A stretch of 13,882 nt of DNA from the NCBI RefSeq assembly GCF_006345805.1, contig NW_021825966.1, forward strand, positions 1 to 13,882. Reading direction: 5' to 3'. Each line of letters starts with the position of its first letter. The stretch's first letter is position 1. Shown in pieces: positions 1 to 13,882 of the stretch. The translations under genes and the position numbers were made by a program. The notes under the pieces are model-generated. The model made no database searches. It worked only from the letters and a program-made list of their open reading frames with translations, and was not told the DNA's origin. This DNA is from Octopus sinensis. Its lineage: Eukaryota.

Positions 1-244
1 TTGTACGTATGCACATGTGTGTGTGTCAAGTATAAATTTATCTGAGAGTTCTTCTGTCTCTGCTTTTCTATGCCTGTATGCAAATGAGTTTGGCTAAAAT
101 ATTGCTAAACTTGTCAGTCACGATGACCTGAGCGCGTGATTGCCGTGTTCGTTGAATCTGCTGCAGTCACGTGATTGACAACGGAATCGGTGGAGCATTG
201 GACAAAAGCGTTCTATTGAGTTAAACATTTTTTTTATATGCATA

Positions 245-646
245 TCTTTATATATAAAAGCGAAGTTGTGTGAGTGTCTGTCCCCTTCGATTTAGATTCC
301 TAACTACTCCCACATTTTGCGGTGCAGTTTTACCAAATTCGGGTATCTTATAGTCGTGATTCATATCGAGCCCTTCTGAGAATTAGCGCGCGTCCACGAT
401 GAGTCTACGATTTAAAAAAAAAATTACCATCATTTTTTCCATTTTAATGCATTTTTTCGCAATTATATAAAGGAAGTAACTCTCTAAAAATGTCTACGAT
501 GAGTCAACGATTTTAAAAAAAATTTACCATCATTTTTTTTTCCATTTTTAATGCATTTTTTTGCTATTTTTTTGCTATAACTCTCTAAAAATGCTTATAT
601 AGTTATTTCCCTTACAAACCCGAGCAACGCCGGGCGATACTGCTAG
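245..646 (+). mobile_element. Non-autonomous Helitron
   Basis: Starts A|TC (TCTTTATATATAAAAG at 245) and ends CTAG|T (643-646). A GC-rich hairpin CCCGAGCAACGCCGGG (619-634) lies 8 nt before the CTAG. There is no TSD and the element sits in an A|T site, which are canonical Helitron termini. Internal ~100-bp tandem duplication at ~392-594. Confidence 0.85.
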
Positions 647-699
647 TATGTATATATATCTAAATGCATGTCTTCGGTATGTCTTTAAACAGCATCCTA

Positions 700-1082
700 T
701 ATTAGGGGCCTGGTTTGGGTTTTCTAGCGTTTTGAGGAGTGTGGGGCCACTTCGTAGTCACTATTGTTCCTAAGTCTACTCTGACCCGGACATTTATCCC
801 TGCCAAGGTCATAGCTATGGATTAATAGAGGGGCTTCGGAACAGGGGTTCCAGGGTGTTGAAGTATGTGGAACCACTTCATAATTACTACTTTTCCTAGG
901 TCTACACTAACTTGGAGTGGTAGCTCCTGTCAGGGTCGTAGAAATGGGTTAATAGAAGGGCCCTAGAACAGGAGGTCAACGAGTTTGAAGGTTGTGGAAC
1001 CACCTCATAACTACTTGTGTTCTTAGGTCTAGTATGACTCGGAGTAGGTGCGCTTGTCTGGATCCCAGATATGGGTTAAATA
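700..1082. repeat. Degenerate tandem repeat, three units of ~126-127 bp
   Basis: The block TGTGG..CCACYTCRTA...CYTARGTCTA...GACYYGGA...ATGGRTTAA recurs with TGTGG at 740, 866 and 993. Confidence 0.75.
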
Positions 1083-1199
1083 CCAGGTAACCATCCAAGG
1101 CAGCTTGGTTACATGCTATTTAAGTCATGAATTACAACATGGATGTGAACCATTTCGGAAAATTAAGCTTAAAGGATAATGGCGAATTGAAAGGCTGAG

Positions 1200-1417
1200 T
1201 GAAGGAACAGACTACAAAGAGTCAACGGTCAGCTTCAAATAGGTCAGTTTGCGAACTACCATCTATAGTTGTGGTGACCGCTGGTATTTCAACAAGCGAA
1301 AGACCAATGGGCTTAAAACTCAATCCAAACGTTCATACCACATCGATTGAGCAGGACATTTGGCATAGAAGAGTCACATTGGACTGGGTAAATCGCTTGA
1401 TCGGATGAGGATGATGA
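1200..1417 (+). mobile_element. Possible eroded 3' end of an RTE-clade LINE
   Basis: The ORF tail ...SIEQDIWHRRVTLDWVNRLIG* resembles RTE C-termini (DRxxWRxxV) and is immediately followed by a TGAGGATGATGA short-repeat tail. The match is weak and degenerate. Confidence 0.3.
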
Positions 1418-1420
1418 CGG

Positions 1421-1421
<1 letters not shown>

Positions 1422-1472
<51 letters not shown>

Positions 1473-1652
1473 TATCATCATCATTATCACCATTATTATC
1501 ATCATTATTATCATCATTATTATCATCATTATCATCATTATTATCATCATTATTATCATCATTATTATCATCATTATTATCATCATTATTATCATCATTA
1601 TTATCATCATTATTATCATTATTATCATCATTATTATCATCATCATCATCAT
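1422..1652. repeat. (ATC)n/(ATT)n trinucleotide microsatellite
   Basis: Direct reading. It produces the poly-I and poly-M ORFs. Confidence 0.98.
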
Positions 1653-1848
1653 TTATTTTTTATCTCAGGTTTTGTTGTAACACCTGGAGTCTTACCTGCG
1701 TAGCGGGCTTACTACGTGCAGCCTACGGTACCATGTTATCCATTTTTTGCGATTATCTAATACTTTCTTGATTATTCTGGACGCACCAAAGAGGAAAACC
1801 TTTTGTATCACTTCTACCGGGCACTCTATTCCGATTTCCTTTATATAT
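1652..1848 (-). mobile_element. 3' fragment of an R4/Dong-clade non-LTR retrotransposon
   Basis: The minus strand from 1847 translates to YIKEIGIECPVEVIQKVFLFGASRIIKKVLDN, matching the R4/Dong C-terminal pattern (LGI...QKxxLLGTARIxRKVL). A ~100-nt 3' region ending GATAAAAAATAAA runs into (TGA/TAA)n. Confidence 0.7.
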
Positions 1849-1875
1849 GATGATGATGATGATGATGATGATGAT
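1848..1875. repeat. (TGA)n microsatellite
   Basis: Direct reading. Confidence 0.95.
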
Positions 1876-2013
1876 ATCCAGTTACTGACTTCTTAATGCT
1901 GCATTCTCTCAATAGTGAGGATACGAAACGCACCAATCAATGGCTAAGGCTGATCTAACTGATGATGGTCTATATGTGTCGAAACTGAGTGACCATAGCT
2001 CAGTAAGCTTTGC

Positions 2014-2141
2014 TTAACAGGAGCTGAAGTGTTCCTCTTGGTCGTAGCAGTTAAAGCGATGGGTATCTGACGTAATAAAGTAGGGTTCCCCAGGCACAAA
2101 GCCGCACCCCAGTACCGTGTGCTGGATCATTTGGTCCCGGA
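2014..2141 (-). CDS. Candidate terminal coding exon of an unidentified host gene
   Basis: Non-repetitive, relatively GC-rich island preceded on the minus strand by a good acceptor TGTTATTCTTTCTGTGCAG|. The phase-1 frame reads RDQMIQHTVLGCGFVPGEPYFITSDTHRFNCYDQEEHFSSC*. I do not recognise the protein. Confidence 0.3.
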
Positions 2142-2270
2142 CTGCACAGAAAGAATAACATTTCAAAACTTTGTCTATTCTGTTGGTTTTCGCAGTCTTC
2201 AAGATGATTTGCATTATATATGTATTCTATATGTAATGAATATGCATTATATATGTAATAATGAAAAGGT

Positions 2271-2515
2271 GGAGATGTATGGCTTAGTGGTTTGGAGTAT
2301 TACACTCATGTTCGTAAGATTGTAGGTTCGATTCGGTGACCGAGCGATGACGTGTGTCCTTGAGCAAAGCATTTTATTTCCCGTTACTTCACACAACTCA
2401 GATAGCAAAATGTGAATTCCTCCGACGGATCGACGTTACATCCAAGGGGGAGTATTTACTCCACAGAACCCAGTGAGGAAACTGACCTTATAAGCCTATG
2501 GCTCGGATAAGGAAA
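2271..2515 (+). mobile_element. Old tRNA-derived SINE
   Basis: A box TGGCTTAGTGG (2280-2290) and B box GGTTCGATTC, followed by a CORE-like TGTGTCCTTGAGCAAAGCA block. Heavily diverged. Confidence 0.7.
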
Positions 2516-2623
2516 TGACCTTTCTTTTGAATAATTAAATTATACTGTGTGACACGACTTTTGTCCTTGGGTAGCAACAGTTATTTCCTATTTGCTGACT
2601 CCTAGAAAGTATTAAAAACAGCT

Positions 2624-2741
2624 GATAGATAGATAGATAGACAGATAGATAGATATATAGACAGACAGACAGATAGACAGGCAAATAGATGGGTAAACAG
2701 AAATATATAGATAAACAGATATAGACAGATAGATAGATATT

Positions 2742-2801
<60 letters not shown>

Positions 2802-2823
2802 CAGACAGATAGGTAGGTAGATA
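2624..2823. repeat. (GATA)n/(GACA)n microsatellite, 3' flank of LINE copy A
   Basis: Direct reading. Confidence 0.97.
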
Positions 2824-3372
2824 AGTTTCTTTATTGGCCACACAGGCCTGCACACAGATGGGACAAGTTACAAGGTAGAGCTTTTCTTTTGGGGGATGAA
2901 AAAAACAAAAAACACAAGAAAAAAAAAGGGGTGGCGTAGGTTTTCGATCAAGAGGGATCGTAAAAGGGAAGAAAAGAAAAAAAAGAAAATAAAAATAAAA
3001 AGAATAAAAAGAAAAAAAAGAAAAGGAAAAAGAACACACAAAAGGAAAGAAATGAAAAAAGAAGAAAGAAGGGGGAAAAAAAAGGGGAAGAGGAAAAAAA
3101 GAACGATCAATAGGGATCGTGTATCGAGAGTGTTATGATATATGGTTGTAAAGGGGAAAGCAAGTAAGGTTATCCGTGGGAGAAAAGCCTACGAAAAAGA
3201 CCACGGTAACCTTGGTCAATATTGTTATATGTTACCACATTTGTGCAAGTGGGTAACCCTCTGTTTTCAAATTTCTGGGTTCATGGATTATGCTCAAGGT
3301 GGCTTCGTCATTCATACGTGCCATCCTTGCTACATTCACCCATCTTTTTTTAAAACATTCGCTAGACAAGAC
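2824..3372 (-). mobile_element. Tx1/L1-type LINE copy A, 5'-truncated (ORF2 end plus 3' UTR)
   Basis: The reverse complement aligns with ~11282-11738 and encodes [28 protein letters not shown]. It ends AATAAAGAAACT followed by (TATC)n. The UTR differs from copies B and C, indicating a separate subfamily or an older copy. Confidence 0.9.
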
Positions 3373-3459
3373 AGATAGATAGATATTTAGATAGATAGAT
3401 AGATAGATATTTAGATAGATAGATAGATTGACAGACATATAGATAGATAGATAGATGGG

Positions 3460-3535
<76 letters not shown>

Positions 3536-3610
3536 CAGACAAACAGATAATACATAGACAAACAGATAGACAAATATATAGACAGAAAGACAGACACAGA
3601 CAGACAGAGA
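3373..3610. repeat. (GATA)n/(GACA)n microsatellite, 5' flank of LINE copy A
   Basis: Direct reading. Confidence 0.97.
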
Positions 3611-3970
3611 CACTTAGAGTGTACAGGTATATGTACTTGTAGGCGTTGTTCATCTTTCTGTGATTTTATTCAAGATCTGCTCATAATACCGACGTTAGAA
3701 GGTGGCGATGGCGGAAAGGGTGTAGTAATGGAGGTGGAGGTGGTGTTGATAATGTGTTGGTGGCGGTGTACGTGTGTGGCGAATGAGGGGGGCAATGGTG
3801 TCGGCGAGGAATGAACAGAGATGTAAAGTAGAATGTAATAATATGACAGGTGAAATTTGGTGGAATCGTTGGCGTGAAGATTTTGATAAAAATCAACGGC
3901 AACAGATATTCGTAGCTTGTTGGAGCTGTCACTGATGGAAGTAAACCGTTGATAACAGTTTACGTACACA

Positions 3971-4013
<43 letters not shown>

Positions 4014-4018
<5 letters not shown>

Positions 4019-4325
4019 CCGTGATCACCGTGACCGACCAGGCTATCAGATGTTGCTACACATCGCTGGTCACAATGCGCTTCGCATTGTTTTAGCCTTC
4101 AAATGACGCCACCCCGCTGGCTAAGCGAGTAGGCCAACAGAAGAAAGAGTGAGAGAAATTTGTTTCGAAAGAGTACAGGAAGGATCGCCACCACCCCCTA
4201 CTGGAGCTTCGTGGAGCTTTAGGTGTTTTCGCTCAATAAACACACACAATGCCCGGTCTGGGAATCGAAACCGCGATCCTACAACCGCGAGTCCGCTGCC
4301 CTAACCACTGGACCATTGCGCCTCC
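4014..4325 (-). mobile_element. Full-length tRNA-derived SINE
   Basis: The minus strand starts GGAGGCGCAATGGTCCAGTGGTTAGG (A box) and contains GGTTTCGATTCCC (B box). It ends in a short repeated tail (CACGGTGAT)2 and lies between (TA)n and (CA/TA)n tracts. Confidence 0.85.
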
Positions 4326-4380
4326 ACACACACATATATATATATATATACAAACACACCATATATATATATATACACAT

Positions 4381-4422
<42 letters not shown>

Positions 4423-4713
4423 TATATATATACACACACACACACAAACGTACGTATGTACATATATGAGAGCGTTGTAGTTCGCATGAAGCTTGTAATA
4501 GCAAAACGCTAAAAAGAGAGCAAATAGAAAGCTTGCTAAAATATGGCAAGTTTAATAAAACCCTTATATATCAGGTGCAAACTCCCATCTTCAGGGGAAA
4601 ATTCCATAAGAAACGTACGATCTATCAACCCTCATAGCTGAAATATAAAAACTTTATTAAACTTAACGCTTTGTAACACGCTTTCTAGTTTTTTTCTCAT
4701 TTTCACCTTCTTC

Positions 4714-4757
<44 letters not shown>

Positions 4758-4795
4758 TGTAGCTGGATAGATACACACACACACACACGAATCTG

Positions 4796-4880
4796 TTTTG
4801 TCTTTTACGTAAGTCATTAGACTGCGGCCATGCTGGGACATCACCTTGAAGGATTTTAGTCAAACGAAATCATACCAGTC
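4796..4880 (-). mobile_element. 3' fragment of the SINE family seen at 11847-12274
   Basis: AGTCATTAGACTGCGGCCATGCTGG matches AGTCATTTGACTGCGGCCATGCTGG at ~11877-11901. Confidence 0.75.
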
Positions 4881-4962
4881 CCCGTTTAAAATTTATTATT
4901 ATCATTATTATTATTAGTATTGTTGTTGTTGCTTTTATTCGTGTTGTTGCTGTTGTCGTTAA

Positions 4963-5140
4963 GGCGGTGAGCTTGCAGAATCGTTAGAACGCTAAACGAA
5001 ATGCTTAGCGATATTCCACCCGTCGCTACGTTCTGAGTTCAAATTCCGCGAGGTCGACTTTGCCTTTCGTCCTTTCGGGGTCAACAAATTCAGCACCAGT
5101 TGTATACTTGGGTCGATGTAATCGACTCACCCCTCAAAAG
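4963..5140 (+). mobile_element. tRNA-derived SINE with uninterrupted head, same family as 8450-9251
   Basis: GGCGGTGAGCTTGCAGAATCGTTAG...GAAATGCTTAGCGATATTCC...GAGTTCAAATTCC (B box)...GCCTTTCGTCCTTTCGGGGTC. It shows the empty insertion site TTAGC|GATATT. Confidence 0.88.
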
Positions 5141-5149
5141 AAAACGACT

Positions 5150-5313
5150 CCCCCCCCCTCTGTCTTTCCTTCTCTGGATCTTCCTTCTCCTATGTTTCCG
5201 ACGAAGAGCTCCGCTCGAAACGTGAAACACTCCTTCTTTCCTGAGCGTCTAATAATACTATATTGTTCCACGTCCTCGCGTTGTTGTGTTTTTTTGTACT
5301 TTCTTGTTTGGAT

Positions 5314-5317
<4 letters not shown>
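5150..5317 (+). mobile_element. Probable Penelope-like element terminus with a hammerhead-like motif (5193-5229)
   Basis: TGTTT-CCGACGA-A-GAGC-TCC-GCTC-GAAACGT-G-AAACA folds as a type I minimal hammerhead with two core deviations. The pyrimidine-rich body ends at a (TA)n tract. Confidence 0.5.
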
Positions 5318-5350
<33 letters not shown>

Positions 5351-5352
<2 letters not shown>

Positions 5353-7570
5353 TGCTGGCCGAAATCTGCCTTTCAGCTTCTGACCAGCGTCGTGTTAACA
5401 TCGTTGTGTTTTCCGTCCGCCGCTATAGGCATCGCCGATAAGGCTCCTTTCCTCGCGCCAGAGAAAAATTTTGTTTGCTTTGTATCAGTCGTAAGACACT
5501 TGTTGTTGTTTTCACCGTTAATGCTTCTGTATTTCATGTTTCTGTATTCCATTATTTTTTTGTTTTTTTATATTCGTCCCTTTTGCTGTCCTGGTGTCCG
5601 TATGCATTCGATCCTTCTTCCAGGAAATCTACGCTCCCAGCTTAGTTTTTCTAATGCTCGTTGCTTAGTTTTTCTTGGAGGGCTGGCCGTGATCTAGTAA
5701 TCTCAAGATTAATCAGCCGAAATTACTACGATGATCCGGTTCTTGACTGAAGACTGAGGGTTCCGAATGTCCTGTCCGTGTTTATTGTATCGTCTTCTAA
5801 GAGTTATACGTTCTTGTCCATGTTGTATTTTTCTACATACCTTAACATATATTCCAGGCGCCACGTACCCTCTTAACATTAATGTGAGCACATATTCTTA
5901 ATAACTGGTACGACTCTTTGTTTGTCTCTCTCTCTCTCTCACTTTTACTTGATCTTCCCCTTCTCTCTCTACTCATCCTCTTTTTCTCTTCTCTTTCCTT
6001 GATTCTTTGGTCTAATCTTCCACTACCCTCCTATTTCTTTGTCTCGCTCTGCACTCACAGGTCAATCTTCGACACCCATCCCTTCTCCTCTCTGATTCCT
6101 TCTTTCTCTCTCTTCTCTCTCTTTGTTGCGTTTGTCCCTCCTCTCTCTCTCTCCTCTCTCTCTCTCCTCTCTCTCTCTCTTCCGTTGCTTCTCTTTCTTT
6201 TCTTTTCTCTCTTTTCTGTCACGTGACTGCTGGCCGAAATCTGCCTTTCAGCTTCTGACCAGCGTCGTGTTAACATCGTTATTTTTCGTCCGCCGCTATA
6301 GGCATCGCCGATAAGGCTCCTTTCCTCGCGCCAGAGAAAAAATTTGTTTGCTTGTTATCAGTCGTAAGACACTTGTTGTTGTTTTCACCGTTAATGCTTC
6401 TGTATTTCATGTTTCTGTATTCCATTATTTTTTTGTTTTTTTATATTCGTCCCTTTTGCTGTCCTGGTGTCCGTATGCATTCGATCCTTCTTCCAGGAAA
6501 TCTACGCTCCCAGCTTAGTTTTTCTAATGCTCGTTGCTTAGTTTTTCTTGGAGGGCTGGCCGTGATCTAGTAATCTCAAGATTAATCAGCCGAAATTACT
6601 ACGATGATCCGGTTCTTGACTGAAGACTGAGGGTTTCGAATGTCCTGTCCGTGTTTATTGTATCGTCTTCTAAGAGTTACGTTCTTGTCCATGTATTTTT
6701 CTACATACCTTAACATATATTCCAGGCGCCACGTACCCTCTTAACATTAATGTGAGCACATATTCTTAATAACTGGTACGACTCTTTGTTTGTCTCTCTC
6801 TCTCTCTCACTTTTACTTGATCTATCCCCTTCTCTCTCTACTCATCCTCTTTTTCTCTTTCTTTCCTCTGATTCTTTGGTCTAATCTTCCACTACCCTCC
6901 TATTTCTTTGTCTCGCTCTGCACTCACAGGTCAATCTTCGACACCCATCCCTTCTCCTCTCTGATTCCTTCTTTCTCTCTCTTCTCTCTCTTTGTTGCGT
7001 TTGTCCCTCCTCTCTCTCTCTCCTCTCTCTCTCTCTTCCGTTGCTTCTCTTTCTTTCTTTCTCTCTTCTCTGTCACGTGACTGCTGGCCGAAATCTGCCT
7101 TTCAGCTTCTGACCAGCGTCGTGTTAACATCGTTGTTTTTCGTCCGCCGCTATAGGCATCGCCGATAAGGCTCCTTTCCTCGCGCCAGAGAAAAAATTTT
7201 GTTTGCTTGTTATCAGTCGTAAGACACTTGTTGTTTTCACCGTTAATGCTTCTGTATTTCATGTTTCTGTATTCCATTATTTTTTTGTTTTTTTATATTC
7301 GTCCCTTTTGCTGTCCTGGTGTCCGTATGCATTCGATCCTTCTTCCAGGAAATCTACGCTCCCAGCTTAGTTTTTCTAATGCTCGTTGCTTAGTTTTTCT
7401 TGGAGGGCTGGCCGTGATCTAGTAATCTCAAGATTAATCAGCCGAAATTACTACGATGATCCGGTTCTTGACTGAAGACTGAGGGTTTCGAATGTCCTGT
7501 CCGTGTTTATTGTATCGTCTTCTAAGAGTTATACGTTCTTGTCCATGTTGTATTTTTCTACATACCTTAA
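5351..7570 (+). repeat. Head-to-tail tandem array of a complex ~865-bp unit (~2.6 copies), flanked by (TA)n; possibly Penelope-like terminal repeats
   Basis: ACTGCTGGCCGAAATCTG recurs at 5351, 6226 and 7080 (periods 875 and 854). Copies differ mainly by small indels in homopolymer and (CT)n runs. Internal junctions read CCTTAA-CATATAT-TCCAGG and the array ends CCTTAA-(TA)n. Confidence 0.95.
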
Positions 7571-7592
7571 TATATATATATATATAAGATCT

Positions 7593-7733
7593 GCTTCTTT
7601 CAGTTTCTGTCTAAATCTACTCACAACGTTTTGGTGGATTAGAGTAGGAAACAACTGCCCAAGGTACCACGCAGTGGGAGCGAACACGGGACATCTTGTT
7701 AGGAAGCAAACTCCATACTACACTGCCACGCCT
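7593..7733 (-). mobile_element. Diverged 5' half of the SINE family seen at 11847-12274
   Basis: GCTTCTTTCAGTTTC...CTCACAA...CCACGCAGTGGGA matches ~12125-12272. Confidence 0.8.
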
Positions 7734-7738
7734 ACGGC

Positions 7739-7774
<36 letters not shown>

Positions 7775-7964
7775 TGCATACATTCGTACACACACACACA
7801 TATATATATTATGTATATATATATAAGATGTGAGTACAAAATATGATAAATAAAAATAGACATTAAACCATTTGTAGGCAATTAATACAAAGTGACCCCT
7901 AGAGAATGATTACTGAAGGGGGCTAAATACGCTTTTCATATTAAAAGAATTATGGCTCCCTTAC

Positions 7965-8033
7965 GTCTCATTTGCAGAGATTTCGGGGTCTTGACAGCTC
8001 CGTAGGATATACGTAAAGACGAACTGTACCACA
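7965..8033 (-). CDS. Candidate 69-nt internal exon
   Basis: Minus strand TCAG|TGTGG...ATGAGAC|GTAAGG. The phase 1-1 frame is open (WYSSSLRISYGAVKTPKSLQMR) and compatible with the candidate exon at 2014-2141. The acceptor is weak. Confidence 0.15.
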
Positions 8034-8254
8034 CTGACATAAGCATATACTCTTACACACACACACACATATATATGCTTGGAGGTTTGCATAATTGTGT
8101 GGGCACACGTGCGCGTTTGTGGGCGTGCGCAGGCGTGTGAACATTGTGCATACATGTATGTAGATAGGTAGGTAGATAATGAAAAGCACGTTTCGGCCAC
8201 ACTGCAAATTCACTGGCAATCTGTAAATTTAATAACAGTACTTTCTAGTGTTGA

Positions 8255-8445
8255 CACAATGCCTGAATTTTTTGTGGGGGAGGGGATGGTCGATTACATC
8301 AATACCAGTGCTCAAATGGTGCTTACTTAATCGACCCCCAGAGGATGGAAGGCAAAAGTTGACCTTGACGGAATTTGAACTCAGATCTCAGAACGGAAGG
8401 ACGAACGAAATGCTAAGTGTGTTAACGATTCTGCTCACGCTCCTT
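8255..8445 (-). mobile_element. Diverged tRNA-derived SINE, same family as 4963-5140
   Basis: GGAATTTGAACTCAGA (B box reverse complement), AAGTTGACC, TAATCGACCCC and TAACGATTCTGC all match the family. Confidence 0.8.
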
Positions 8446-8448
8446 CGC

Positions 8449-8449
<1 letters not shown>

Positions 8450-8486
<37 letters not shown>

Positions 8487-9251
8487 TAATAATTTCAAAT
8501 TTTGCCACAAGTGCAGCAATTTTGGGGTATGGGATGTCGCTTACATCGACACCAGTATTCAACAGGTACTCATTTTATCGACTCTGGAAGGAGAAAGGTA
8601 AAGTCGACCTCGTCGGAATTTGAACTCAGAACGTAGCGGCAGACGAAATACCTATTTCTTTATTACCCACAAGGGGTTAAACACAGAGGGGACAAACAAG
8701 GACAGACACACGGATTAAGCCGATTACATCGACCCCAGTGCGTAACTGGTACTTATTTAATCGACCCCGAAAGGATGAAAGGCAAAGTTGACCTCGGCGG
8801 AATTTGAACTCAGAACGTAGTGGCAGACGAAATACCTATTTCTTTATTACCCACAAGGGGCTAAACACAGAGAGGACAAACAAGGACATACAAACGGATT
8901 AAGCCGATTACATCGACCTCAGTGCGTAACTGGTACTTATTTAATCGACCCCGAAAGGATGAAAGGCAAAGTTGACCTCGGCGGAATTTGAACTCAGAAC
9001 GTAGCGGCAGACGAAATACCTATTTCTTTACTACCCACAAGGGGCTAAACACAGAGGGGACAAACAAGGACAGACAAACGGATTAAGTCGATTATATCGA
9101 CCCCAGTGTGTAACTGGTACTTATTTAATCGACCCCGAAAGGATGAAAGGCAAAGTCAACCTCGGCGGAATTTGAACTCAGAACGTAGCGGCAGACGAAA
9201 TAACGCTAATCATTTCGTCAAACGCGCTAACGATTCTGCCTCCACGCCGCC
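8450..9251 (-). mobile_element. Host SINE (head 9205-9251, body and own tail 8493-8652, (TTA)n end) interrupted by three 184-bp units
   Basis: The head GGCGGCGTGGAGGCAGAATCGTTAGC...TTAGC and the distal body ...CCCCAAAATTGCTGCACTTGTGGCAAAATTTGAAA(TTA)n together make one diverged SINE. Confidence 0.85.
8653..9204 (-). repeat. Three near-identical 184-bp units (8653-8836, 8837-9020, 9021-9204), each a SINE body plus a LINE-like 3' tail
   Basis: Exact 184-bp period (AAGTYRACC at 8601, 8785, 8969, 9153). Each unit ends ...GTGGGTARTAAAGAAATA and is followed by GGTATTTCGTCTGCC. Confidence 0.95.
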
Positions 9252-9267
9252 ATAAAGTCGCCCGTGT

Positions 9268-9400
9268 AATGATGATTTCAAGTTTTTGCCAGCAGTTGTT
9301 GAGAGGAGGGGCAAGTCGATTCATTGATTCCAGTACGTGACTGTTATTCATTTCATTCACTTAGAGGTTGCAACGCCAAACCGACCACAGAGGAATGTGA
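9268..9400 (-). mobile_element. Highly eroded SINE fragment, same family as 4963-5140
   Basis: AAGTCGATTCATTGATTCCAGT...CCGACC...GGAATGTGAA parallels AAGTCGATTATATCGACCCCAGT...TCGACC...GGAATTTGAA. Confidence 0.55.
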
Positions 9401-9459
9401 AAAGGCCATCAAAATAATAACTACCTTATGAGATCTTAAAGAATTGAGGATTTACGTAT

Positions 9460-9530
9460 ACCTGTATACAGAAATATCATCTACTATACTCTCAAACACT
9501 GCCAGAAATAAATTGCGCATGAATATCTGT

Positions 9531-9535
<5 letters not shown>
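9460..9535 (+). repeat. 76-bp direct repeat, left copy
   Basis: 74/76 identical to 12732-12807 by manual alignment. Confidence 0.95.

Positions 9536-9600
<65 letters not shown>
9531..9600. repeat. (TATC)n microsatellite, 5' flank of LINE copy B
   Basis: Direct reading; perfect repeat. Confidence 0.98.
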
Positions 9601-9601
<1 letters not shown>

Positions 9602-10244
9602 CCTTCAAACGGGAAGGAAGAGCTATTTTCATCATCCTTGTGGCTATGGCGAAAGAATATATCTGGTGGACGCGTCTGAAAGGATTGGAGACAAACACTT
9701 TCCTCTCTGGTCAATCTCTCATCAACTTCTTCAAGTACCACTTGAAAAGGAAAGTGAGAGTAGAGAGGCAAGTTTTGTCTAGCGAATGTTTTAAAAAATG
9801 ATGGGTGAATGTAGCAAGAATGGCACGTATGAATGACGAAGCCACCTTGAGCATAGTCCTATGAACCCAGAAATCGAAAACAGAGAGTTGCTTTTTTATT
9901 TGCAAAAAAAAAAAAAAAAAAAAAAGAATATAAAATGTGACTTCATTGACCGAGGTTACCGTGGTCTTTTCCGTAGGCTTTTCTTTCCACGGGTAAACCT
10001 CACCTGTCCTCCCTTTAACACTTCATATTGACATTTCTGTGATAACGATCCCTATTGATCAATTTTTTTTCCTCCCCCCCTTTTTTTTTTTTTTTTTAAC
10101 CCCCCTTTTTTTGTCTCTTTCTCTCCTTTTACGATCCCTTTGATCAAACTCCCCCTTCCTTTTTTTTTTTTAAAACCTTCAAAGAAAAGCTCTACCTTGT
10201 AATTGTTCTATCTGTGTGCAGCCCTGTGTGGCTATAAAGAAACA
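9601..10244 (+). mobile_element. Tx1/L1-type LINE copy B, 5'-truncated
   Basis: Nearly identical to 11112-11738. It carries an in-frame TGA at 9799-9801 where copy A has AGA, and ends TATAAAGAAACA|(TATC)n. Confidence 0.92.
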
Positions 10245-10275
<31 letters not shown>

Positions 10276-10350
10276 TTATCCATCCGTCTCCGTCCGTCCA
10301 TCCTTCCATCCATCCATCCATCATCCATCTTCTATCTATCAACTTTTCTT

Positions 10351-10395
<45 letters not shown>

Positions 10396-10498
10396 TTATC
10401 CATCCGTCCGTCCGTCCGTCCATCCATCCATCCATCCATCCATCCATCTATCTATCTATCAACTTTTCTTTCTATCTATCTATCTATCTATCTATCTA
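10245..10498. repeat. (TATC)n/(CATC)n compound microsatellite with an internal ~125-bp duplication
   Basis: TATTTATCCATCCGTC...AACTTTTCTTTCTATC occurs twice. Confidence 0.92.
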
Positions 10499-11738
10499 GT
10501 GGTTGATGATGCGCAGACACGCGCTGAGACTGCGACATCTCTGGCTCTATGTAGACGACGGTGAACAGGTGTGGTCGCCGTTTGTGAGGCACGCTTTCCC
10601 GCAGCTCGTCTCCATGACCGAACTGCAGTCGTGGATCAAAAAGAGGCCGAGGAAGGGCGAATGGCACCGCGAGTGTCGCGTTGCTCTCAAGCAACTCTGC
10701 CGTCCTGGGTCGACCTTAAGTGACTTCAACACAACCAAAGCATTCTATAGGGGTTTAGTGGAGGGGAGGTACGACGACGAGCTCGGGTCGAACCTGGACG
10801 TCGACGAGGAGTACCTGACCCGCCTGTTCAGGACGACTTTCGGGCCAGGATCCATGGACAACTTCCAGAGATCCCTGGCCTGGCAGTGCTACCGAGAAGC
10901 GCTACCCGTTCGGGATAAGCTCTACAGACACGGCTCGAGAAACACGGGGCCGACCTGCCCGAGATGCGGTCAGAGCGACGAAACCGTTCTGCACGCACTC
11001 GTTCAGTGTCCAACAATTTCCGACCTGTGGGCTTGTGTCGAACAACTGCTGTCACGTGTGGGACGAGTCGGTTTATCAGCTGAGTGTATCGTCAATATTG
11101 TCACGCCTCCTTCCTTCAAACGGGAAGGAAGAGCTATTTTCATCATCCTTGTGGCTATGGCGAAAGAATGTATCTGGTGGACGCGTCTGAAAGGATTGGA
11201 GACAACACTTTCCTCTCTGGTCAATCTCTCATCAACTTCTTCAAGTACCACTTGAAAAGGAAAGTGAGAGTAGAGAGGCAAGTTTTGTCTAGCGAATGTT
11301 TTAAAAAAGATGGGTGAATGTAGCAAGAATGGCACGTATGAATGACGAAGCCACCTTGAGCATAGTCCTATGAACCCAGAATCGAAAACAGAGAGTTGCT
11401 TATTTGCAAAAAAAAAAAAAAAAAAAAAGAAATATAAAATGTGACTTCATTGACCGAGGTTACCGTGGTCTTTTCCGTAGGCTTTTCTTTCCACGGGTAA
11501 ACCTCACCTGTCCTCCCCTTTACACTTCATATTGACATTTCTGTGATAACGATCCCTATTGATCAATTTTTTTTTTTTTCCTCCCCCCCTTTTTTTGTCC
11601 TCTTTCTCTCCTTTTACGATCCCTTTTGATCGAAACTCCCCCTTCCCCTTTTTTTCTTTTTTTTCTAACCCTTCAAAAGAAAGCTCTACCTTGTAATTTG
11701 TTCTATCTGTTGCAGCCCTTGTGGCTAATAAAGAAACA
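10499..11738 (+). mobile_element. Tx1/L1-type LINE copy C, 5'-truncated (~1.24 kb)
   Basis: ORF2 C-terminal region plus 3' UTR. AATAAA at 11727-11732, no poly(A) tail, and (TATC)n on both sides. Confidence 0.92.
10500..11373 (+). pseudogene. C-terminal fragment of LINE ORF2 (post-RT region plus zf-RVT-type zinc knuckle), frameshifted twice
   Basis: Motifs SLAWQCYREALPV, C-x2-C-x8-H-x4-C (CPRCGQSDETVLHALVQC, 10956-11009) and AKECIWWTR are typical of L1/Tx1 ORF2 ends. Restoring one A at ~11204 (present in copy B) and one at 11303-11308 (present in copy A) gives a continuous frame to TGA at 11371-11373. Confidence 0.88.
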
Positions 11739-11803
<65 letters not shown>

Positions 11804-11846
11804 GTGTGTGTGTGTGTTGTGTGTGTGTGTGTGTGTGTGTGTGTGT
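11739..11846. repeat. (TATC)n followed by (TG)n
   Basis: Direct reading. Confidence 0.97.
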
Positions 11847-12067
11847 CTATTCTCTTTACTCTCTTTTACTTGTTTTAGTCATTTGACTGCGGCCATGCTG
11901 GAGCACCACCTTTAGTCGAGCACATCGACCACAGTACTTATTCTATCGGTCCCTTTTGCCGAACCGCTAAGTTACGGGAAAGTAAACACTCCAGCATCGG
12001 TTTTCAAGCGATGTCGGGGAGACAAACACAGACAGACAGACAGACAAACACACACACACACAGACAC

Positions 12068-12110
<43 letters not shown>

Positions 12111-12273
12111 CATACATACGACGGGCTTCTTTCAGTTTCCGTCTACCAAATCCACTCACAAGGCGTTGGTCAGCCCGAGGCTATAGAAGAAGAGACTCGC
12201 CGAATGTGCCACGCAGTGGGACTGAACCCGGACCATGTGGTTGGTAAGAAAGCTACTTACCACACAGCCACTC

Positions 12274-12274
<1 letters not shown>
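11847..12274 (-). mobile_element. Full-length tRNA-derived SINE with an internal (TG)n tract
   Basis: Minus strand AGAGTGGCTGTGTGGTAAG (A box), GGGTTCAGTCCC (B box), central GCCTTGTGAGTGGATTTGGTAGACGGAAACTGAAAGAAGCCCGTCG, and tail CAGCATGGCCGCAGTCAAATGACT...AAAAGAG. Partial copies lie at 4796 and 7593. Confidence 0.88.
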
Positions 12275-12276
<2 letters not shown>

Positions 12277-12313
<37 letters not shown>

Positions 12314-12384
12314 TATCTATATATATATATATACACACACATATATACACATATATATATACATATATATATATATACATATAC

Positions 12385-12444
<60 letters not shown>
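12277..12444. repeat. (TA)n/(CA)n microsatellite
   Basis: Direct reading. Confidence 0.97.
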
Positions 12445-12445
<1 letters not shown>

Positions 12446-12506
12446 TTTTATTCTCGAATTTGATGACATATAGTGGTACAAAAGCCGACTCAAGAAATCT
12501 CAACTC

Positions 12507-12575
12507 AGACTTTTTATTGATGTACCTGAAGAGACCCAGGGCGGGTCGAAACATGTGTTGTACCGAATGAAGTCT
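12507..12575 (+). ncRNA. Type I hammerhead ribozyme motif inside a (TA)n-bounded fragment (~12445-12712), probably Penelope-like
   Basis: GTAC-CTGAAGA-GACCC-AGGGC-GGGTC-GAAA-CATGT-GTT-GTAC has an intact core, a perfect 5-bp stem II, a short stem III and a 4-bp proximal stem I that can extend through TTATT/AATGA and AGACT/AGTCT. Confidence 0.7.
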
Positions 12576-12731
12576 ATTACACATTCCATATATTTTACCA
12601 CAACCTGCACAACCTAGTTTCTGCAGTAAGTCTACGAATAACAACAGGTAATCGAAACTGTGCAGGTGCTTTACTCATCATCCTTCTAGACATATTCTGC
12701 AATTTCTCCATTATATATATATATATATATA

Positions 12732-12807
12732 ACCTGTATACAGAAATATCATCTACTATACTCTCAAATACTGACAGAAATAAATTGCGCATGAATATCT
12801 GTTCTAT
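12732..12807 (+). repeat. 76-bp direct repeat, right copy
   Basis: Matches 9460-9535 with 2 substitutions. Confidence 0.95.
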
Positions 12808-13200
12808 GTAGCATTTCAATATGAGCTACATATAGACATCCACAAATTCTGTAAGTTTAAGACCTTCCATCGGATCTCCATGAATCGAACTTTCTTCAAT
12901 GCAGTTAATCTTACACCCTCATTTGTATCTACCACTTTTGATGTTTGGGAATTCTCTGATGTTTTTTCGGCTGACGAGTACGAGCCATCTGTATTTACTA
13001 CTGCATTTTTTGTAGTTTTAAAGATGTCCTCGTACGAAACAATTGTACCGAGATTTTAATCCATTCTTGTTGCTTTTTTCCTATTTGTAATCACCCCACT
13101 TGTCGTGTGGTTAACACACCATATATGTTTCCGGTGCATCCTAGTTAAGGACCATATTCATGTGAATTCATTAGAATTCACTTGAATCTTAATTACTTAA

Positions 13201-13241
<41 letters not shown>

Positions 13242-13246
<5 letters not shown>

Positions 13247-13443
13247 ATCCTTCAACTATCGCAGGTGTTACGTCCCAAAACTCTCTGCGATTAGTGAAAA
13301 TCTGCGAAGCAACCATATTTTTTTTAACTAGTTATATAATTTGTATATACTTATTTTTATATTCAAAACAACACCACGGAGGAATCGACGTAAGCTTAAT
13401 AATAAACCGCGATAGGTGACCGCGATATGGCAAGGGATTACTG
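13242..13443. mobile_element. MITE of Tc1/mariner (pogo/Tigger-like) type
   Basis: Imperfect ~24-bp TIRs: left TAGTAATCCTTCAACTATCGCAG, right (reverse complement) CAGTAATCCCTTGCCATATCGCGG. TA dinucleotide on both sides. Confidence 0.7.
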
Positions 13444-13448
13444 TAAAT

Positions 13449-13484
<36 letters not shown>

Positions 13485-13491
13485 TATATAT

Positions 13492-13597
13492 ATTTATTTT
13501 AAGAATGAGCTTCTACAGACTAGAACTGTTTCATCTGATGATTTCATTTGAATGAAAACAGTTCTAGTCCTGTAGAAGCTCCTTCTATAAAATAAAT
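13492..13597. repeat. Long inverted repeat (~43-bp arms, 17-nt spacer)
   Basis: ATTTATTTTAAGAATGAGCTTCTACAGACTAGAACTGTTTCAT pairs with ATGAAAACAGTTCTAGTCCTGTAGAAGCTCCTTCTATAAAATAAAT, with a few single-base bulges. Confidence 0.88.
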
Positions 13598-13674
13598 TAT
13601 TTACTCTGCTATGTATTGAGTACCTTATTTACTGTGGTTAACCCCAACTCAACCCGAACCTAAATATATATAAT

Positions 13675-13707
<33 letters not shown>

Positions 13708-13882
13708 TATATATATATATATACCCCTTTAATTTACTCTTCCTTTAAGTAGGGATTAACAAAAAGCCTCAAAATAACTTAGGGACACAGGGCACATTAT
13801 ATAATCTGTTTAAAACGCAGTGTCCCTGGGGTAAGGGGATAATTGTAGGTTTTATTTTAAATACTCTGCACTTAAATGATAC

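Follow-up and report, generated by a model that had tools for sequence, protein, structure and literature searches.

How a short interspersed element (SINE) comes to carry the 3' end of a long interspersed element (LINE), and which LINE then moves it, is the question raised by a stretch of Octopus sinensis DNA (assembly GCF_006345805.1, contig NW_021825966.1, positions 1 to 13,882; the whole 13,882-nt stretch is called the window). A tandem repeat of 184 bp occupies 8541-9202 in 3.6 copies, and three 5'-truncated copies of one LINE are found in the same window. An earlier sequence-only reading held that the 184-bp unit's 3' tail is homologous to the LINE 3' end and that the unit is a SINE mobilised by a Tx1-type LINE. 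We find that the two 3' ends share ancestry over ~47-50 nt. The account we favour, with a probability of about 0.7, is that a template switch gave the SINE its tail, taken from the final ~50 nt of a LINE of the L1/Tx1 group, and that the SINE would be copied in trans by an ORF2 protein of that lineage that recognises the tail.

In BLASTN searches against the window, the best non-self matches of the unit tails were the LINE 3' ends (E 4e-6 to 2e-3), with unit 3 (8655-8701) aligning to LINE 2826-2875 over 50 columns, 38 of them identical, with a single gap of 3 nt (E 1.4e-5). The earlier hand count of 39 matches in 47 positions with one 3-nt gap proved right: the majority sequence of the three units matches LINE copy A at 39/47 and copy B at 38/46, and each unit by itself matches copy A at 38/47. 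For pairwise tests, we took the best local alignment of each whole unit with each whole LINE copy and compared it with 2000 dinucleotide shuffles. In all nine pairs the alignment extended as far as position 182 of the 184-nt unit and stopped 2 nt short of the LINE end; at most one shuffle (0-1/2000) reached its score. When only the tails were compared, no shuffle reached the score in any of 18 tests (0/2000 each), and the alignment is thus significant against shuffled controls. The homology lies within the proposed span of 8653-8705 but is slightly shorter, covering 8655-8701 of unit 3 plus two terminal bases. Additionally, a profile for which only the three LINE ends were used detected in the window, beyond its own sources, only the three unit tails (nhmmer E 1.3e-6, 1.8e-7 and 1.7e-6 for units 1, 2 and 3). 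Averaged over the three LINEs, the scores of the unit tails are 35-40; the highest background score among 5356 windows of 60 nt across the 13.9 kb is 20.0, and eight other SINE or repeat ends used as controls score 10-23 against the LINE ends. BLASTN, the nine alignments, the shuffles and the LINE-only profile therefore agree that the tails are homologous. As had been stated, neither element has poly(A): on inspection, the unit ends on the minus strand in AATAAAGAAATA, with an AGTAAA variant of the signal in unit 1, and the LINE copies end in (A)ATAAAGAAAC(A/T).

The terminal signal AATAAAGAAA contributes part of the match, because its removal weakens the score. Without this end the tail signal persists partly, the score being reached by 0-100 of 2000 shuffles, and by 11 or fewer in five of the nine pairs. 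A short match that contains AATAAAGAAA and loses significance without it might reflect chance or convergence between two AT-rich, pyrimidine-rich ends with a polyadenylation-like signal, or a one-off local chimera of an old SINE and a LINE stub. We consider this very improbable in view of the profile E of 2e-7, the background maximum of 20 against 35-40 for the unit tails, and an identical body-tail fusion at 14 other loci; the shuffle and profile tests, together with those loci, already largely refute it.

These other loci were sought in protein sets through chance translations of the unit's opposite strand. A 56-amino-acid frame on that strand gave 18 matches, 14 of which align across the body-tail fusion, and five of the 14 extend into the whole head; P0141, found with a second frame, is one further head-body-tail copy. 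The other four matches were left out of the count (P0131 covers the body only, and P0132, P0135 and P0140 are unrelated repeats), and a junction-spanning peptide profile of the second frame returned one protein from six candidates, without the junction. Because 14 of the 18 matches carry the body-tail fusion, the fusion marks a dispersed SINE family rather than a local chimera, and the unit belongs to a short, non-coding, dispersed family with a head, a body and a LINE-type tail. Dispersed single copies with unrelated flanks exist, one of them at 87% peptide identity (P0123). Several database proteins are translations of this SINE's opposite strand.

The LINE copies in the window keep only the C-terminal part, and their assignment to the L1 group goes through homologues. 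The frame at 10500-11255 contains a zf-RVT domain (E 2.3e-8) and has six longer homologues, including a reverse transcriptase (RT) protein of Argonauta hians (61% over 232 amino acids) and an Octopus bimaculoides gene model with a piece 83% identical to it; these point to an octopod origin of the window. P0003, 67% identical to the frame, has 549 relatives among 8000 scored candidates, many of them ~1150 amino acids long with APE, RT and zf-RVT domains (PF03372+PF00078+PF13966). The closest solved structure to P0003 is L1 ORF2p (E 1e-50; R2, 1e-24). Its homologues having an RT closest to L1 ORF2p and APE, RT and a C-terminal zinc region, the window LINE belongs to the L1 group. A tree of the C-terminal region, built from 20 of 122 matched proteins with no named Tx1 element among them, places the frame and the Argonauta protein in a six-member clade (support 100/99), where five sisters lie at 59-70% identity.

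All three LINE copies have (TATC)n on both sides and no poly(A), and copies B and C lie within one tract. Judged by traits only (L1 group, (TATC)n sites, no poly(A)), the LINE is Tx1-like; the APE-type Tx1 traits used for this comparison are those in PMC4494074. Kibi, Koshi and the crocodilian (TTCC)n and (TTTC)n Tx1 families (PMC4494074, PMC3812793) are likewise APE-type elements that reside in microsatellites; they differ in repeat unit and host, and the likeness is again one of traits only. A TATC target is not among the Tx1 targets given in these literature excerpts, and 80 L1-Tx1 consensus sequences are reported for Octopus vulgaris (supplement of PMC13282606). The three copies are 96-99% alike in their common coding block, and B and C are identical at 285 of 286 sites. 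Within 9531-11803 these two copies form a stack in a single (TATC)n tract, both with the same orientation. At the 5' joins all three copies show 5-6 nt of microhomology-like sequence, with the repeat in A and B. A direct repeat of ~76 bp (9460-9535 and 12730-12806, two mismatches by eye) flanks the 3.2-kb block of B, C and (TATC)n tracts; its first copy continues into (TATC)n and its second into unique sequence. In P0006, an Octopus bimaculoides RhoGEF10-like gene model, the first ~45 residues correspond to the LINE family frame, probably as a gene-prediction artefact.

Read on the minus strand, the array runs from a SINE head (9255-9205) through units 1-3 (9204-8653) to a SINE remainder with a different tail (8652-8495) and (ATT)n. 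We interpret the units as 5'-truncated copies, the 3' three-quarters of a tRNA-type SINE (~235 nt including its head), nested in the head-hairpin loop of an older sibling. Sibling SINEs at 4959-5127 and 8445-8272 have the head and body in common with the units but not the tail. The three units differ pairwise at 10, 10 and 6 of 184 sites and lie 2-3% from their own majority, and are thus young, while the host remainder differs from the unit majority at 16 sites and a gap in 118 nt. Because the units differ at 6-10/184 among themselves and at 17/118 from the host body, the unit was evidently not copied from the local host; the same figures led us to reject a LINE stub with a 118-bp target duplication. 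In a manual reading against the sibling copies, the old head carries ~7 private changes in 53 nt, compared with 5 in 184 for unit 1 (Fisher p 0.006), and seems older than unit 1. The young units thus sit within an old sibling element.

Folding of the old head gives a long hairpin (-41.6 kcal/mol, z -4.29, 0/200 shuffles; z -2.85 as DNA). The units start precisely where the 4-nt loop of this hairpin has its 3' edge; such a fold is lacking in the sibling head at 4959 (z -0.98). The head stem is preserved by a paired double change at 9210 and 9203, which suggests that unit 1 opens with bases still belonging to the old head. On the minus strand, 8200-9345 holds a head-to-tail series of four sibling SINE pieces, all in the same orientation (a fragment at ~9345-9262, the split host and 8445-8272), each coming after a short (ATT)n-type end.

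The B-box motif occurs in all four pieces of the array and in the 4959 copy. The strict A-box consensus pattern matched neither head; each has by eye a single mismatch. Within the array an A-box-like site is found in the old head only, a B box in each unit, and there is no run of four T on the sense strand over 8358-9260, so that RNA polymerase III (Pol III) could read through the array. The old head would supply the A box and each unit a B box to a transcript that could span it.

Neither ARAGORN nor Rfam found a tRNA or RNA family in the unit. Octopus already has the tRNA SINEs OR1, OR2 and OK, said to have been described by Ohshima and Okada in 1994, and OR1 or OR2 is reportedly filed as a CORE-SINE. 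These are likewise tRNA-derived octopus SINEs, likened here by description, and the citing passages through which they are known name no Tx1 partner; the present family may be one of them or a Repbase or Dfam entry. A CORE-SINE is defined by a ~65-bp CORE domain, and a MetaSINE by a 66-bp Meta domain after the head. Our guess that the body is a Meta domain gained no support: no likeness by eye was seen to bivalve MetaSINE sequences in the compared part of a published supplement, and a string comparison with that supplement found none of six window strings.

Units 2 and 3 have in common two derived changes (positions 48 and 117) that are lacking in unit 1 and in the host. They would be sisters, the outcome of a single local duplication or else of two separate insertions from the same subfamily, and because two of the three units have these changes in common the array need not be three targeted insertions. 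It is conceivable, then, that an old template switch left the tail behind as a fossil and that the young units, as a satellite derived from a SINE, owe their spread mainly to duplication at the DNA level rather than to retrotransposition. Along with the common changes and the non-significant tail hairpin (see below), such a course has precedents in (SINE-TSD)n arrays of bivalves (TSD, target-site duplication; PMC11481361) and in lizard satellites whose unit runs from the B-box part of a SINE head through the LINE-derived region (PMC10702118). The octopus array resembles these squamate satellites in its tandem units of B box, body and LINE-derived region (179-215 nt in whiptails), but has just three units and is nested in a sibling SINE with another tail. 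We judge the satellite explanation unlikely, as the unit body is no copy of the local host's, unit and LINE have one and the same end point, and dispersed single copies such as P0123 have unrelated flanks. Coordinates of all these features are collected in Table 1.

Table 1. Features of the SINE array, its sibling elements and the LINE copies in the window.
Feature	Coordinates	Strand	Remarks
Unit 1	9021..9204	-	B box 9168-9177 in the apparent 3' half of a tRNA-type head; then conserved body, linker of ~17 nt and LINE-type tail
Unit 2	8837..9020	-	B box 8984-8993; two derived changes in common with unit 3
Unit 3	8653..8836	-	B box 8800-8809
LINE-homologous tail of unit 1	9023..9069	-	AGTAAA signal variant; shuffles and profile
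LINE-homologous tail of unit 2	8839..8885	-	Shuffles and profile
LINE-homologous tail of unit 3	8655..8701	-	Unit positions 136-182; 8653-8654 are the last two bases of the element
5' part of older SINE head	9205..9255	-	A-box-like 9231-9241 (one mismatch, by eye); hairpin left arm 9209-9219, loop 9205-9208
3' remainder of older host SINE	8495..8652	-	39 nt as in units; next 79 nt with 16 mismatches and 1 gap; unrelated tail after that
(ATT)n end of older host SINE	8449..8493	-	Tandem repeat
Older sibling SINE, whole head and body, without LINE-type tail	4959..5127	+	Comparison copy
Older sibling SINE without LINE-type tail	8272..8445	-	Comparison copy
LINE copy A, 5'-truncated	2824..3363	-	(TATC)n both sides; tail 2826-2875
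LINE copy B, 5'-truncated	9602..10244	+	(TATC)n flanks; tail 10195-10242
LINE copy C, 5'-truncated	10499..11738	+	(TATC)n flanks; frame 10500-11255 with zf-RVT; tail end 11736

If the tail derives from such a LINE, the flanks bear on which LINE acts on it. The unit is followed by GGTATTTC and the LINE by TATC, and the statement that their targets differ thus stands, all three LINE copies lying in (TATC)n. The TATC-targeting family could itself mobilise the SINE in trans, through looser targets or through priming set by read-through sequence of the SINE RNA. It is the only partner seen, and it is young (285/286 between B and C), as are the units (2-3% from their majority). We nevertheless hold this to be quite unlikely, since no unit is flanked by TATC, the SINE and LINE tails differ by ~20% (~8-9 of 47 sites plus a gap of 2-3 nt), and the endonuclease mainly sets target choice (PMC4494074). 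The insertion signature of the SINE is unlike that of the TATC family, which counts against that family as partner but not against an unseen sister. Sister LINE families exist, as the five sisters at 59-70% indicate, and a related but different partner is plausible because the tails are ~20% apart while the LINE copies are 96-99% alike and several sister RTs are present.

One special case of the template-switch account is that a sister Tx1 family cuts between GC and GGTATTTCG in the SINE head, so that the SINE targets its own head and copies stack. Each insertion would rebuild head plus target at its 5' end, and the flank expected 3' of the tail is GGTATTTCGTC. The three unit junctions in the window are identical and lie at the loop edge of the strong head hairpin, but they are not independent if units 2 and 3 are a local duplication. 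In the host remainder, mismatches are absent from the first 39 nt and number 17 in the next 79 (chance 0.0006-0.015, by the number of family differences assumed, with a boundary chosen post hoc); this fits a choice of intact targets or a flank supplied by read-through RNA, but a crossover between unit and host bodies would also leave a clean 39 nt. Published examples include Tx1 families whose targets are other transposons, and SINEU-3 copies arranged in tandem about a single TSD (PMC4494074).

Elsewhere, nine tail ends have a 3' flank that could be read manually. Two of them (P0125 and P0138) clearly adjoin a SINE head, ~34 and ~10 nt further 5' than in the window, and P0129 does so doubtfully; the flanks of P0124 and P0130 look like AT/AC-type repeats, and the remaining four had no assignment. 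This sample is biased both ways: a window-type junction is rarely predicted as protein, because an in-frame stop lies just upstream and there is no start codon, while copies in tandem receive a double score. The clear pair of head junctions and the doubtful one speak for a head-specific cutter, whereas their positions and the complete absence of the window flank among the nine speak against it, in a sample biased against that junction. SINE heads may be a preferred target, though not the sole one. Thus, of the earlier proposal of a sister Tx1 partner specific for the SINE head, the related but different family is plausible and the head specificity is unproven; we regard the head-specific cutter as possible but tentative. 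The fuller idea, in which an animal tRNA-SINE with a Tx1-derived recognition tail is self-targeting and is inserted by a Tx1 family that cuts the hairpin loop of the SINE's own head, is rather doubtful. If it held, each insertion would fuse to a resident Pol III promoter, rebuild the target and turn old siblings into templates, giving head-to-tail stacks; Tx1 elements would then recognise their RNA stringently, a point relevant to the question whether the L1 group had such recognition from its ancestor.

Returning to the template-switch account, we propose that an octopod tRNA-type SINE exchanged its original tail for the last ~50 nt of a Tx1-like LINE. Most likely the tail is an RNA tag to which that lineage's ORF2 protein binds when it starts target-primed reverse transcription, and recognition would be stringent rather than poly(A)-based, by analogy with L2, CR1 and RTE elements. 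What mobilises the SINE is probably not the TATC family but one related to it, because of the ~20% tail difference and the other flanks. A copy entered the loop of the older sibling's head hairpin and is joined without a seam to the old head on its 5' side, probably because the cDNA was homologous to the upstream target DNA; the unit would therefore start where the host was split. The trimer would then have grown by further insertion, unequal exchange or both.

Several results weigh against this account. Without the AATAAAGAAA end, 18-100 of 2000 shuffles match the score in four of the nine pairs. The stem-loop previously noted before AATAAA is present as a 4-bp stem in the minimum-energy fold of all six tails, but these hairpins are no more stable than shuffles (z -0.9 to +1.3), and their covariation, a check suggested earlier, does not rise above the control: 22 of 24 cells are paired with one two-sided change, LINE B and C pair in a shifted register, and 203-242 of 500 shuffles score as high. 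None of the nine readable tail ends elsewhere shows the GGTATTTC flank, in the biased sample described above, and no LINE with the SINE's own tail variant was found in the window or in scans of bacterial and archaeal contigs. In the latter, an exact junction scan of bacterial and archaeal genomes for stray eukaryote contigs gave no match, a scan for LINE relatives gave 31 pattern matches, none confirmed, and plasmids gave no match. Units 2 and 3 may stem from local duplication, and the tree, built from matched proteins with no named Tx1 element among them, does not separate Tx1 from other L1-group clades. Finally, a common tail shows ancestry, not current use. The proposal of a Tx1-mobilised SINE is partly supported, by the tail homology to an L1-group, Tx1-like LINE and by the dispersed family; statistics lend the stem-loop no support. 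That the SINE carries an L1/Tx1-derived tail is supported by the sequence comparisons.

Other repeats in the window were also noted. A tandem unit of ~870 bp (~2.6 copies, 5352-7574) is 97-99% alike in gap-free blocks, has (TA)n at both ends, and is possibly another microsatellite-targeted element stacked head to tail; in the profile scan its end does not match the LINE tail. A second SINE-like family, at 12115-12273 and 7585-7730 (both minus strand), ends in AAACTGAAAGAAGC before (TA)n or (TG)n, and the same scan found no LINE match in its tails. An Rfam Hammerhead_1 match at 12522-12563 (plus strand; 25.4 bits, E 0.017) falls below the gathering score of 34; it is possibly a remnant of a Penelope-like element or retrozyme.

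Among known systems, the octopus pair would work like the stringent SINE/LINE pairs of L2, CR1 and RTE elements; for L2, tail recognition has been shown experimentally (PMC4176376). In molluscs, exchange of SINE tails and LINE-SINE tail matches of 35-61 bp at 72-95% are the norm (PMC11481361, PMC4824008). Mollusc tRNA SINEs with conserved central domains similarly combine a common head and body with exchangeable LINE tails and form short tandem arrays, but their reported partners are CR1, CR1-Zenon, L2 and Nimb (PMC11481361, PMC4824008, PMC4758252), and the main texts of PMC11481361 and PMC4824008 do not contain the word Tx1. Within the L1 clade, ZmSINE2 and ZmSINE3 have ~50-80 nt of 3' end in common with LINE1-1_ZM, as does SINEX-3_CR with L1-1_CR (PMC3472496, PMC3747384), which is read as stringent recognition. 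These pairs differ in being from maize and Chlamydomonas, in their poly(A) or poly(T) ends and in a hairpin with compensatory changes. In a 2012 survey, three of 58 SINE/LINE pairs were L1-tailed, all from plants or a green alga and none animal or Tx1 (PMC3472496).

The closest parallel for a Tx1 partner is SINEU with Tx1-Mar in crocodilians (Kojima 2015, PMC4494074), where the SINE is also inferred to be Tx1-mobilised, inserts into another transposon and forms tandem copies at one site. SINEU has U1 or U2 small nuclear RNA heads and poly(A), is linked to its LINE by common targets, and no LINE with the SINEU-1 3' end was found; the octopus SINE has a tRNA-type head and no poly(A), and is linked by a common tail while the targets differ. 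We found no account of a SINE paired with an L1/Tx1 tail in the open full-text literature; Repbase, Dfam, SINEBase and subscription papers were outside this scope, and the family may be catalogued there. String searches of paper supplements and full texts, with figure-only sequences outside their scope, found no published copy of the unit, the single match being an unrelated primer.

Common tails are frequent for L2, CR1 and RTE partners and rare for the L1 group, and SINEU, with poly(A) and no identified common tail, is the one Tx1-mobilised SINE class that the literature searches turned up. SINEs make up ~12% of an octopus genome (PMC13282606), and naming a LINE partner therefore matters for cephalopod genome evolution. 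If our account is true, the reading of a 3' tag by Tx1 elements could be tested directly, through an animal SINE that has a Tx1-type tail and lacks poly(A).
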